A stretch of 30,466 nt of DNA. Origin: an uncultured archaeon. Its GTDB lineage: Archaea; Nanohalarchaeota; Nanosalinia; Nanosalinales; Nanosalinaceae. Where the stretch lies: contig CAZKLW010000001.1 of NCBI GenBank assembly GCA_964553995.1, positions 6,023 to 36,488 on the forward strand, given 5' to 3'. Position 1 is the stretch's first letter. Each line of letters starts with the position of its first letter. Under the pieces are notes generated by a model. The model saw nothing but the letters and a program-made list of their open reading frames with translations, made no database searches and had not been told where the DNA came from. This document shows positions 891 to 4,864 of the stretch, piece after piece. Made by a program: the position numbers and the translations under genes.

Positions 891-2840
891 TCAAGTCTCA
901 AGACCAGCTGGAAACCCTATAACCTTGGTCTCGTATTCCCCACCTTCTCCCGCGGCGTTAAAACCGTGTTCCCGGGAGAGTTCTATCAGTTTCTCGACAG
1001 AGTCATCTTCAAGTTCCCGATCGACCCAGGATTCATCGAGACCCTTCGCCGCAACACCTGTTATCTCGACCTCAAAGCCCTCTCTTACCAGCCACCGCAT
1101 GTAGCTCTCCTGATCGGTCATCCATAGCGGCGCAAAGGTCTTGAGGCCCAGTTGCTCGGCTACCTTCTCGACGCGGTCTCGCTGGTAGGTCGATGCTATC
1201 GCACCCGAGACGACACCTTCCACACCGTATTCTTCTTTCGCTTGCCGAAGAGCTTCCTCAAGATCTTCGAGTTCCTTCTCCTTTTCTCCCTCGGTCTCCC
1301 GTATCAAGAGCGGTATCCCGAGTTTCTCTGCCTGTTCCTCGACCACGGATTCCGCCTTCTTCACGTCGAACATGTAGCTTTCCGTGTTTTCAGATCGAAT
1401 GGTGGCGAGACAGGAGATCTCACTGTTTCTCTTCTTCATCCTGTATAGAGCGGCATTCGAATCCTTTCCTCCAGAGGTCAAAGCCGCGAGCCGGTGGTTA
1501 GGCTTATTCCTAAGCGTGTTAAGGTAACTCTGCTTGGATTCGAACTCGTCATCTTTACCAAGCCTTGCGATCGCCTTATCAAAGTTGCTGCCGTACTGTG
1601 CCGCGGTCTTTTCACGCCAAGCAACTTCTTCCGGGACGCCAAGCTTCTCCGCCACAAGCCTCAGGACGTACTTCCGATAGTCTTGGCTGACCTTGTGTTC
1701 ACCGGGGATGGTAAGCGCATGCTCCACGAGTTCTTGGTCCAGGAAGGGAACTCGGAGCTCAAGGCCGTTTCTCATTGAAACCACATCGTCCCTGTAGAGA
1801 TCACGCTCGAAGAGGCCTCGTAGACCGGAGAGGCACTCCTGGTTGTAATAATTCTCCTTCATTCTTGAGTAACCGGCGTAAAGCTGCTCCGACCCCAGAC
1901 CGGAGAACACCACTTTCTGATCTGCATGTTGCAGCGCGAAGTGAAAAGGTAGCGCAACGCCGAGCTTGACTGTTGAGGTTGAAGATATCCATTCCGCAAG
2001 CTCAGGTAGCATCTCTTCTACATCCTCCAGGTCGGCTTCGTAGCTCTCCAGTTCAAGCCCCATATCCCTTGCTACCTCTTCCGCCCATTCAACGTCCCGG
2101 GGCGCATTCACGTTGCCGTGCTGGATGCCCGCAGTGTAACAGGTGAAATCCTTCCCGAGCTCCTGTAATGCGGCCGCCACCATGGTGGAGTCCAGACCCC
2201 CCGAGAAAAGCAGCGCAACTTCACCTTCGGGAATTCTCTTCTCAACTGCCGACAGGAAAAGTTCTTTTATCTCCTCGGCAGCAGCATCCAAGTCTTTGTC
2301 CTCGACATCGAGATCAAAGAACTCCCGCTGTTCAAAACTTATCTCTCCCGATTCAGTGTCGTACCTTAGCATCTGCCGCGGATGAAGCTCCCGTGGTTCA
2401 AGACCCGCCCTCTCGAGCGCCTGTTTTTCCGAGGCAAAGGCGAAGGGATCGCGGGAATACCAGATCGGTTTGATCCCTAAAAGGTCGCGGGCCAGAATTA
2501 CCTCTTCATTACTATAATAGGCGAGTGCGTAAACCCCATCCAGTCCTTCAAGAGCCCCGAGACCTTTGCTGTCCAGCAACTCCAGGAGAAGCTCGGCATC
2601 GTTCCTGACATCTATTTGATGCTTATCCGCCATTTCCCACCAGTTGTAGATCTCACAGTTCGCCGTGAGTGTTCCCTCTCCACGAACAGGCTGTTCTACG
2701 TGGCCTACGACAGGATGCAGGACGTGACCAATCGAGAAATCTTCGAACTCTTTGAGCCCGGAACTCCGTCCCCTATGCTCTAGCTCTTCGACAAGCTGCT
2801 CGACCATTTCCTGGCTTCCTGCTCCGGCTATACCGCACAT
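891..2840 (-). CDS. Fusion of an asparagine synthetase B-like protein (Ntn glutaminase + PP-loop domain) and diphthine-ammonia ligase (Dph6-like)
   Basis: N-terminal MCGIAG, HRG, N(C)EIYN, ARDLLGIKPIWY, FASEK, SGGLDS, LELRVPFLD. The C-terminal ~200 aa carry SGGKDS, SYMF, GAIASTYQRDRVE, FAPLW and GEGGEYET, typical of Dph6/PF01902. Confidence 0.9.
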   Translation of the reverse strand: MCGIAGAGSQEMVEQLVEELEHRGRSSGLKEFEDFSIGHVLHPVVGHVEQPVRGEGTLTANCEIYNWWEMADKHQIDVRNDAELLLELLDSKGLGALEGLDGVYALAYYSNEEVILARDLLGIKPIWYSRDPFAFASEKQALERAGLEPRELHPRQMLRYDTESGEISFEQREFFDLDVEDKDLDAAAEEIKELFLSAVEKRIPEGEVALLFSGGLDSTMVAAALQELGKDFTCYTAGIQHGNVNAPRDVEWAEEVARDMGLELESYEADLEDVEEMLPELAEWISSTSTVKLGVALPFHFALQHADQKVVFSGLGSEQLYAGYSRMKENYYNQECLSGLRGLFERDLYRDDVVSMRNGLELRVPFLDQELVEHALTIPGEHKVSQDYRKYVLRLVAEKLGVPEEVAWREKTAAQYGSNFDKAIARLGKDDEFESKQSYLNTLRNKPNHRLAALTSGGKDSNAALYRMKKRNSEISCLATIRSENTESYMFDVKKAESVVEEQAEKLGIPLLIRETEGEKEKELEDLEEALRQAKEEYGVEGVVSGAIASTYQRDRVEKVAEQLGLKTFAPLWMTDQESYMRWLVREGFEVEITGVAAKGLDESWVDRELEDDSVEKLIELSREHGFNAAGEGGEYETKVIGFPAGLET

Positions 2841-3629
2841 TTATTCCACCTCGTAATCGGCCGCAAAGTCACTGATCTCGCGCTGGCTCGTGTCAAGTGT
2901 CTCGTAGCTCGCTATCACGTCTTCCATCTCGACTTCAACGAACTCGAGGTCTCGCTCTTCAAGGTAGGCCAGCACCTTATCCGTCATTTTGGGGGCGACC
3001 AGTATTCCCCTAACGTTGTTCCGGAAGTCGTCTTCGATCTCGTCGACGTAACGCTGGAGCTGGAGCACCGTGTTGTAGTCGGGATTCCGCTTGACCTCGA
3101 TAACAACGTAGTTGTTCTCGGAATCGCGGGCGAATACGTCTATAAAGCCGGCTGGCGTCTCCCTCTCCCTCTCAATTACCTTGAGACCTTCCTCGACTAT
3201 CTCCGGATCGGTCTCTATCGACTCATGGATATCGATCTCGTGTCCACGAATCTTGAGATCTGATTTATCGATGAGTTTGTCGACCATGAGGAAATCGACT
3301 GACTCGAAACGGATCTCAACTTTTTCCTCAGGCGAACTTCTCAGTGCCTCGAGCACAAGCTCATCCGTGTCTTCGTCGATCTCAACGTTGAAAGAATCGA
3401 CCTCGGGCTGCCAGTTCTTGGGCTGGTAGTTGTCCGGGCCATGCACCAGAAGAGCGGAATCCTGTTTCTTGATCACCAAGCGCTCGCCCCTATCGAGTTT
3501 CGACTTCGCCCGGCCCTGGTAACTAACCGAGCAGAGCCCGTTAACCTGAACCGTGTACTTCCGGGAAAGGTACTTTTCCATTAGCTCTCGTGCCTCGGTA
3601 AAGGATGGATTTTCTACAAGTTCTTCCAT
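2841..3629 (-). CDS. nucS: Endonuclease NucS/EndoMS
   Basis: CSVSYQGRAKSKLDRGERLVIKKQDSALLVH, PKNWQP and the RecB-like nuclease motif GFIDVFARD...VVIEVKR...QLQRY. Confidence 0.93.
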   Translation of the reverse strand: MEELVENPSFTEARELMEKYLSRKYTVQVNGLCSVSYQGRAKSKLDRGERLVIKKQDSALLVHGPDNYQPKNWQPEVDSFNVEIDEDTDELVLEALRSSPEEKVEIRFESVDFLMVDKLIDKSDLKIRGHEIDIHESIETDPEIVEEGLKVIERERETPAGFIDVFARDSENNYVVIEVKRNPDYNTVLQLQRYVDEIEDDFRNNVRGILVAPKMTDKVLAYLEERDLEFVEVEMEDVIASYETLDTSQREISDFAADYEVE

Positions 3630-3644
3630 GAAGGGAAGAAAAAT

Positions 3645-4103
3645 CTAAATCTTCAAGTAAACTTCTGTTCCTATTCCGTATTCCTCATCACCAGTTTCTA
3701 TCCGGCTACCTTCCAGTCTATCCAACCAGTATTCAGCATCAGACCCCATTTCCTCAAACACATCTTCAGTCAACTCCATAGTAGATTGCTCTCCCGTGGC
3801 GGCTTTCAATTGGGCGTTTGACTTCAATACATCGAAAGCCTCCTTTTCCGATCTCAATTCCGGACGCTCATGGAGTACTTCAGCTCCCTCAAGTTCCCTA
3901 GAAGTGTCAATATCCGAAGTTATGCCTTCCCCCAGCTTGAAGACCGCCTCTGTCTGCATGGTCTTGGAACGATGGATGGAAGTCGGCCGGACTCCGAGTT
4001 CTTCATAATCTGTCAAATCCGGTTCGATATCACCAGCCATCTGGCAGTATTTTACCACTTCTGCAAGCAACCCGTGGAGGTGGATCAGCTCCTGTTTCTT
4101 CAT
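3645..4103 (-). CDS. UPF0058 family protein with C-terminal extension
   Basis: MKKQELIHLHGLLAEV and PTSIHRSK match haloarchaeal-type UPF0058. Start set at the ATG at 4103. Confidence 0.75.
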   Translation of the reverse strand: MKKQELIHLHGLLAEVVKYCQMAGDIEPDLTDYEELGVRPTSIHRSKTMQTEAVFKLGEGITSDIDTSRELEGAEVLHERPELRSEKEAFDVLKSNAQLKAATGEQSTMELTEDVFEEMGSDAEYWLDRLEGSRIETGDEEYGIGTEVYLKI

Positions 4104-4180
4104 ACATTGTTCTTGGTCACTAAAAGATAAAACGGCCACGGATCAGAAGCCATAAAAGCCTGAAATATGAGGTCAAAAAC

Positions 4181-4864
4181 ATGGATTATAGGATTAAAGA
4201 CCTTCCCAGAAGCGATAGACCAAGGGAAAAGCTCAGGAAAAACGGTATTTCCGGTCTTACAGATGTAGAACTTCTTTCAATTATGCTAAGAACCGGTATA
4301 AAGGGCAAAAACGTCAAGGAGCTGGCAGCGGAGATACTAGGGAGTTACTCTCTGGACCGGCTGGCGGATAGATCGCTTGAGGAACTCCAGGGATTCAAGG
4401 GTGTATCGGAAGTGAAGGCCGGACAGTTGATCGCGCTGGGCGAACTTGCCAGGAGGACCAAGAGGGAAGAGCGGGAAAGGATCGAGTCATTCAGTGACGT
4501 GAAGTCCCGGGTCGAAGACATGAAGTTTCTCGAGGAAGAAAGATTGAGGATTTTCCACCTGAACTCAGGCAATGAGCTGCTAGCCGAAGAGGATCTCGAA
4601 GGAGGTGTAGATTCCGTAAGTTTTGAGCCACGGAAGATCTTCAGGAACGCGATACGTAAGGGTGCCTCTGCGGTAGTGATCGCGCACAACCATCCCTCGG
4701 GAAACCCACAACCGACCGAACAGGATATTGAGGTCACAGAGCAGCTCATCGAGGCAGGGAATACCGTCGGAGTTGAACTACTTGATCACGTGATTGTTGG
4801 GAAGGAGACCTCCAGTATTAGGAGCTGTGGATCGGCTGAAATCTGGGATCAGGAGCCCCTTTAA
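4181..4864 (+). CDS. radC: RadC / UPF0758 JAB-domain protein
   Basis: DRPREKL, LTDVELLSIMLRTG, HhH region GVSEVKAGQL, AHNHPSGNPQPTEQD and LLDHVIVG. Confidence 0.92.
   Translation: MDYRIKDLPRSDRPREKLRKNGISGLTDVELLSIMLRTGIKGKNVKELAAEILGSYSLDRLADRSLEELQGFKGVSEVKAGQLIALGELARRTKREERERIESFSDVKSRVEDMKFLEEERLRIFHLNSGNELLAEEDLEGGVDSVSFEPRKIFRNAIRKGASAVVIAHNHPSGNPQPTEQDIEVTEQLIEAGNTVGVELLDHVIVGKETSSIRSCGSAEIWDQEPL

Follow-up and report, generated by a model that had tools for sequence, protein, structure and literature searches.

Why should a diphthine-ammonia ligase (Dph6) be fused to both domains of a protein resembling glutamine-dependent asparagine synthetase (AsnB), and what does the AsnB-like part contribute? 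This question is raised by a gene at positions 891..2840 (minus strand) of the window, by which we mean the whole 30,466-nucleotide stretch analyzed here, from an uncultured archaeon of the family Nanosalinaceae. Diphthamide on elongation factor 2 (EF-2) guards reading-frame fidelity, and the final step of its synthesis, catalyzed by Dph6, is the least studied. We modestly favor the reading that this fusion gene encodes the organism's only diphthamide synthetase, a 'long form' in which Dph6 would carry out its known chemistry, a glutaminase would feed it ammonia and the AsnB-like domain would couple the two.

The gene is a single uninterrupted open reading frame (ORF) of 649 residues plus a stop codon, in which a class II glutamine amidotransferase (GAT-II) domain is followed by an AsnB-type PP-loop, synthetase-like (AS) domain and then by Dph6. 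Pfam places GATase_7 at residues 49-143, Asn_synthase in two stretches reaching residue 417, and Diphthami_syn_2 (PF01902) at residues 450-643 (E 7e-54). The N-terminal nucleophile (Ntn) glutaminase domain (residues 1-170; 2331..2840, on the minus strand like all features of the gene) was recognized by Pfam, by alignment and by a fold match to asparagine synthetase (human ASNS, AsnB). It begins with MCGI (residues 1-4; 2829-2840), which holds the nucleophile Cys2, and includes the glutaminase motif NCEIYN (residues 61-66; 2643-2660). The AS domain (residues ~185-445; 1506..2288), recognized by Pfam, NCBIfam, HMMER and hhalign, exhibits a first PP-loop, SGGLDS (residues 213-218; 2187..2204), which is invariant across the family. 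It also carries STVKLG (1959..1976) and SGLGSEQ (residues 313-319; 1884..1904) in place of two AsnB motifs, as well as KTAAQYGS (1587..1610), the local form of a subfamily signature, K-x-A-A-Q-Y-G-S. In the Dph6 domain (residues 450-644; 909..1493), assigned by TIGR03679, by the structures 3rjz and 2d13 and by fold, the second PP-loop, SGGKDS (residues 456-461; 1458..1475), is the ATP site, and GEGGEYET (residues 631-638; 927..950) corresponds to the motif bearing E183, E186 and E188 of PF0828. The three-domain ORF and its motifs had been described in a first-pass annotation, and every one of them was located and its coordinates checked. The start codon (ATG, 2838-2840) directly follows the TAA of nucS, with GAGGTG 8-13 nt upstream. 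The database copy of the protein (P0002, 638 aa) begins at Met12, a gene call that removes the catalytic Cys2, a residue kept in all homologues of the family alignment. An AlphaFold2 model of the 649-residue protein, built from a 43-sequence alignment, reached a mean local confidence (pLDDT) of 90.2 and a predicted TM-score (pTM) of 0.90. The linker joining the modules is short, and the high pTM of the model fits a fixed three-domain body.

With regard to the C-terminal domain, its Dph6 function is well supported by sequence and by modeled structure, because the family cut-off is passed, the diagnostic residues and the fold are kept, this is the sole Dph6 of the organism, and dph2 and dph5 are present. 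The domain scores 238.5 bits against TIGR03679 (Dph6_archaeal), above the equivalog cut-off of 197.3, and matches 3rjz/2d13 at E 1e-48 with HMMER. Both the PP-loop SGGKDS and the C-terminal GEGGE(Y/F)ET motif were found. All nine residues by which Dph6 orthologues are told apart from the other subfamilies of DUF71 (PMC3541065), namely S44, Y45, E78, Y103, Q104, A149, E183, E186 and E188 of PF0828, are unchanged when the domain is aligned to 3rjz with HMMER. In the model, the domain superimposes on PF0828/PH1257 with a TM-score of 0.81 relative to the target and a root-mean-square deviation of 1.4-1.6 Å (Foldseek). The genome holds one Dph6 domain, that of the fusion, and a check of the rest of the pathway found both dph2 and dph5. 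The presumed protein substrate, EF-2, is encoded in the same window (16014..18203, plus strand) and keeps its target histidine, as the first-pass annotation had claimed: His599 (codon 17808-17810) lies within HEDAIHRG.

A separate observation concerns another nanohaloarchaeal family from the order of the window: in none of its ten genomes (G003-G012, 80-93% complete) was dph2, Dph6 or the AsnB-like module found. The EF-2 of this family (loci L210-L213) has kept the target histidine in a slightly altered loop, HEDPAHRG or HEDHVHRG. This family is a candidate diphthamide-less lineage, and it is not mentioned by Narrowe et al. (2018).

In the proposed mechanism of the long form, the Dph6 domain would adenylate the diphthine carboxylate on His599 of EF-2 and then amidate it. 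The Ntn domain, whose Cys2 is intact, would hydrolyze glutamine, and the released ammonia would be used for the amidation. The enzyme would thereby need no free ammonia, in a cell that depends on a host and apparently lacks glutamine synthetase: none was found in the genome, a 92-contig draft that is 82% complete. The weakest step concerns the middle domain, which may act as a coupling module or conduit between the glutaminase and Dph6 and perhaps still binds ATP. The first-pass suggestion that glutamine-derived ammonia may be passed to Dph6 agrees with the conserved Cys2 and the intact Dph6, but AS domains occurring without a glutaminase are not explained by supply alone.

Both the fusion architecture and the ammonia-supply idea are already known. 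De Crécy-Lagard et al. (2012, Biol Direct 7:32; PMC3541065) described AsnB-DUF71 fusions with the same order of GAT-II, Asn_synthase PP-loop and DUF71 domains in Methanohalophilus mahii, Methanosalsum zhilinae and 'Ca. Nanosalinarum sp. J07AB56', one of these examples being from the phylum of the window, and proposed the GAT-II domain as the NH3 source for Dph6. Nothing essential differs between these proteins and that of the window, which is an orthologue with the same proposed role. A reviewer of that paper asked what the AsnB-like PP-loop domain does, and the paper left this role open. Added here are the evidence against asparagine synthesis, the loss of a catalytic glutamate that defines a wider subfamily, the range of architectures within that subfamily and a link to dph2. 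The glutamate loss, the forms without GAT, the stand-alone forms and the dph2 neighborhood are all absent from the 2012 paper.

The fusion was found to be widespread: it is carried by more than 120 proteins of Nanohaloarchaeota, some of them from single-contig genomes, and by many DPANN lineages. The best 120 database relatives, most of them from Nanohaloarchaea, are 623-684 aa long, 63-73% identical and carry all three Pfam domains. An exhaustive search of cluster representatives added several dozen clusters of full-length fusions with 35-48% identity, and the fusion occurs in species genomes or metagenome-assembled genomes (MAGs) of Nanosalina, Nanoarchaeota, Woesearchaeota, Iainarchaeota and Altiarchaeota. 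Within the family of the window, Dph6 directly follows the AsnB-like half in one frame of 640-790 aa in 47 of 49 genomes, eight of which are single-contig, and the identical arrangement is present in six of the eight genomes of a second family of the phylum.

In AsnB, the catalytic glutamate of SGEG is required for the formation of beta-aspartyl-AMP. The residues of the AsnB-like half were mapped by HMMER to human ASNS (6gq3) and by hhalign to E. coli AsnB, in agreement with each other, and in both alignments the glutamate column of SGEG(S)DE (E. coli E348, human E364) is occupied by Leu315; the catalytic glutamate is absent. The T-T-x-R motif, which according to Boehlein et al. in 1997 reportedly serves the same adenylate formation, aligns with V291-K292-L293-G294 (Thr-Thr-Ile-Arg replaced by Val-Lys-Leu-Gly). 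Its arginine is gone, and Lys292 is invariant in the subfamily. In human ASNS, the E364A, E364Q and D367A variants are inactive (PMC6748925). Against the curated models, the half scores 231.8 with asn_synth_AEB (TIGR01536) and 183.5 with NF006949, below the respective cut-offs of 267.1 and 499. Its fold nevertheless matches ASNS/AsnB, with a TM-score of 0.74-0.76 relative to the target for residues 1-445. Compared with AsnB and human ASNS (1ct9, 6gq3), these residues share the two-domain fold, the Cys nucleophile, N-x-E, the Asp, the PP-loop and the lysine equivalent to K449. The glutaminase residues Cys1, N74, E76 and D98 of AsnB are retained here as invariant C2, N61-C62-E63 and D81; also retained are the ELRVPFLD block and the essential lysine (E. 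coli K449, human K466), which corresponds to K411 within the signature. The half differs in being shorter (445 versus 553 aa), in the changes from Glu to Leu, TTxR to VKxG and R49 to Leu, and in the addition of KxAAQYGS. Many charged residues of the AS domain are also invariant, namely K292, R326, R350, D351, E361, R363, D368, K383, K390, R394 and K411.

The first-pass annotation had raised the possibility that the change from glutamate to leucine accompanies the fusion. This is not so, since the loss is a trait of the whole subfamily, fused or unfused. When E. coli AsnB was aligned with the 150 top-ranking cluster representatives, none of the rows covering the E348 column had glutamate there, whether Dph6 is attached or not. 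Leucine is the commonest residue there, and Val, Ile, Met, Asn, Gln, Phe, Thr, Ser and Gly also occur. Members have the signature K-x-A-A-Q-Y-G-S in common, whereas the nearest bacterial relatives (Anaerolineales) carry TGEG and lack it. A quick tree of the PP-loop domain set the subfamily (124 rows) apart from canonical AsnB by a 99* branch, with the architectures intermixed and at least nine architecture changes forced by starred, that is, well-supported, branches. No curated family name was found for the subfamily, to which NCBIfam and Pfam give sub-threshold AsnB matches only.

Four architectures were distinguished: GAT-AS-Dph6, GAT-AS (~440-530 aa), AS-Dph6 without GAT, and AS alone (~255-340 aa). 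Among 80 signature-bearing metagenome loci that were classified, 74 had an AS-like ORF, comprising 11 full fusions, five AS-Dph6 (two complete), 11 GAT-AS (nine complete) and about 30 complete AS-only genes. The AS-Dph6 ORFs at L019, L115 and L140 are complete and lie inside their contigs. Genomes with AS-Dph6 or AS-only genes do have Dph6, and no glutaminase of the subfamily was found anywhere in them. The idea that a stand-alone AS replaces Dph6 was rejected, as stand-alone Dph6 is encoded in the same genomes. Five further AS-like ORFs of 431-490 aa (L106, L116, L126, L127, L138) have an N-terminal region that the glutaminase query did not match, and they may carry a different or degenerate N-terminal domain. 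The genome of the window contains a second, highly divergent AsnB-like fragment (L004; G000:C21:2-1048, minus strand), in which the end of a GATase_7 domain is followed by LSGGFDS and by TGLNSQ replacing SGEG; the N-terminal Cys region is missing, and the contig end truncates the fragment. Some relatives have AsnB-type paralogues of ~600 aa.

The subfamily is also linked to diphthamide synthesis by gene neighborhood. At four loci (L050, L092, L095, L162) the gene order around a stand-alone AS is dph2 - TBP - AS - MazG (L050 2344-5236). The class of marine archaea holding L050 is presumably Thermoplasmatota, because the nearest named relative on the tree is Cuniculiplasma, and 121 of its genomes were scanned. 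A strong AS-only match was found in 44 of them, with dph2 on the same contig and strand, ~0.4-1.5 kb away, in 40 of these 44, and 39 of the 40 show the same four-gene order. In the larger genome G108 the AS gene is directly upstream of dph2, and 2.8 kb separate the pair in the large genome G126. In this class Dph6 (224-235 aa) is encoded on other contigs, and a large-genome group of the class has dph2 and Dph6 and lacks the subfamily. Outside this class, L115 encodes an AS-Dph6 gene followed by one unknown gene and then by a C-terminal piece of Dph2. Taken together, the dph2 neighborhood is suggestive of a link between the subfamily and the pathway, with the caveats that kin are not independent, that the TBP gene lies in between, and that most other unfused members have no dph neighbor. 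The idea that split GAT-AS genes adjoin dph6 was rejected; the sole case of adjacency is L168, where Dph6 is directly downstream of an AS-only ORF.

Several side observations were made at these loci. Many genomes with the dph2 - TBP - AS-only - MazG order carry a second AS-only paralogue elsewhere. Dph2 is encoded as two separate pieces, of ~60-90 aa (N-terminal) and ~210-240 aa (C-terminal), in G076 (L031 5257-5535), in G078 and at L115 (4094-4762); split Dph2 in DPANN has already been reported by Narrowe et al. (2018). In the ~1.9 Mb genomes of the L050 class, frames of 370-400 aa match the Dph2 family of Pfam in two stretches (1-75 and ~88-301), and in some of them Dph6 is also matched in two stretches, which suggests lineage-specific inserts.

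The best-surviving alternative to the long-form reading is that the AS domain has a reaction of its own, in the diphthamide pathway or on EF-2. As an unrecognized accessory 'dph' component, the domain would adenylate a carboxylate of some kind; it would be fed primarily by the glutaminase, with Dph6 working beside it. We regard this explanation as rather unlikely, although the conserved charges, the fusions lacking GAT and the neighborhood of dph2 suit it better than they suit an ammonia-supply role. The subfamily conserves the PP-loop and the set of charged residues; its single clade mixes fused, split, GAT-less and stand-alone forms; and AS-Dph6 without a glutaminase exists. In the marine class a stand-alone AS is found beside dph2 with Dph6 elsewhere, and a piece of Dph2 is found at L115. 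The replacement of Glu348 by Leu or Gln, with two acidic residues kept, might also suit the quaternary ammonium of diphthine better than a primary amine. However, a stand-alone Dph6 is enough in most archaea and in yeast, and the archaeal pathway is not known to lack any chemical step. Many lineages that make diphthamide lack the subfamily, among them two sister families of the window's own and, in the marine class, the group with large genomes. Moreover, with most unfused members located away from any dph gene and TBP intervening, the synteny may be historical.

Some of the same observations weigh against the long-form reading itself. The intact PP-loop and the invariant charged residues suggest an active site of the domain's own rather than a passive conduit. 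Since the AS domain is found fused to Dph6 without a glutaminase, or by itself, ammonia delivery alone cannot account for its link to Dph6. On the glutaminase side, the arginine that binds the alpha-carboxylate of glutamine (E. coli R49, human R48) is replaced by an invariant Leu41, with His42 adjacent. The apparent absences of glnA and asnS, the genes for glutamine synthetase and asparaginyl-tRNA synthetase (AsnRS), are weak evidence from an 82%-complete genome alone, although that of asnS is backed by complete relatives. Finally, no biochemical test of the fusion was found in the literature searched from after 2012. As a tentative broader proposal, which we consider possible but doubtful, the subfamily defined by SG[L/Q/N..]G in place of SGEG and by K-x-A-A-Q-Y-G-S would be a dedicated accessory component of archaeal diphthamide synthesis, either binding or activating diphthine-EF-2 or linking Dph6 to the nitrogen supply.

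A second alternative, which we consider improbable, is that the protein is bifunctional, its AsnB-like half being a working glutamine-dependent asparagine synthetase to which Dph6 was fused merely because both use ammonia. The AsnB fold and domain order are kept, as are the PP-loop, the K449 equivalent and ELRVPFLD, and acidic residues at D351/E352 are partly kept. Nanohaloarchaeal genome papers also list the gene as AsnB or 'asparagine synthase' (PMC10266531). Against this stand the replacement of the catalytic glutamate in every covering row of the subfamily, a change that inactivates the human enzyme as E364A/Q, the loss of the TTxR arginine, and a score under the equivalog cut-off.

The phyletic pattern is likewise opposite to what a working asparagine synthetase predicts. 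It was examined, family by family, in 69 other genomes of the phylum. In the window's family, no searched genome yielded an AsnRS that passes the curated cut-off, the sole match being of the AspRS type (~265-285 bits), whereas nearly all have GatB, and GatE too, with two GatB_N-domain genes in most. As GatB and GatE are present and AsnRS is absent, asparagine is made on tRNA in this family, and free asparagine is therefore not needed there for translation. Two sister families have AsnRS and a stand-alone Dph6 (227-230 aa) and lack the AsnB-like module. These two families have only GatE, and AsnRS was also found in part of a third family. The route to Asn-tRNA thus switches within one order, and the AsnB-like module occurs where translation has no use for free asparagine and is missing where translation requires it. 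The idea that the module substitutes for tRNA-dependent asparagine formation was also rejected, GatB being present in the fusion-bearing family; in several genomes of a family having lost the fusion gene, GatB is present and the AsnB-like module is absent. The first-pass suggestion that the AsnB half may have lost asparagine synthesis therefore gains weight from the missing glutamate and arginine, the sub-cut-off score and the lack of AsnRS, and the half very probably no longer makes asparagine. The last explanation, an assembly or annotation artefact joining two genes, can be dismissed with near certainty, since the same single ORF recurs in eight genomes made of one contig each, dozens of independent MAGs and metagenome contigs carry it too, and nothing was found in its favor beyond the 92-contig state of the draft.

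The long form can be compared with several known systems. The stand-alone Dph6 proteins PF0828 and PH1257 (3rjz, 2d13) are 41-47% identical to the C-terminal 200 residues over the aligned fold, whereas the window protein has ~445 extra N-terminal residues. Eukaryotic Dph6 (yeast YLR143W) likewise combines a Dph6 core with domains proposed as an ammonia source; in that case, however, the accessories are two C-terminal RidA domains, unrelated to the N-terminal GAT and AsnB-like domains found here. GMP synthetase and NAD+ synthetase follow the same logic, in which NH3 from a glutaminase reaches a PP-loop domain that has adenylated the substrate. These enzymes have one PP-loop domain, whereas the window protein has two, and its substrate is a protein side chain.

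With regard to the surroundings of the fusion gene, nucS (2841..3629, minus strand) is probably co-transcribed with it, because the nucS stop codon abuts the fusion start codon. The other neighbors encode a UPF0058 protein (3645-4103, minus strand) and a RadC-like JAB protein (4181-4864, plus strand). None of the three genes within 2841-4864 is related to diphthamide, and no informative conserved neighbors of the fusion gene were found. A DRG-type GTPase (MMR_HSR1 plus TGS) was observed near an AS-like gene, mostly convergent with it, at about ten loci of differing architecture (L010, L011, L012, L020, L027, L096, L097, L135, L136 and L165).

These results bear on how nanohaloarchaeal genomes are read. 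'Asparagine synthase' has been counted among the few genes for amino-acid biosynthesis that nanohaloarchaea retain (PMC10266531), and this label is probably a mis-annotation that distorts metabolic reconstructions. The question put by the reviewer in 2012 is sharper now, given that the second PP-loop domain exists independently and is tied to dph2 by genomic context. Should the long form prove to depend on glutamine, it would illustrate how archaea that rely on a host and have tiny genomes obtain the nitrogen for an essential modification of a protein.

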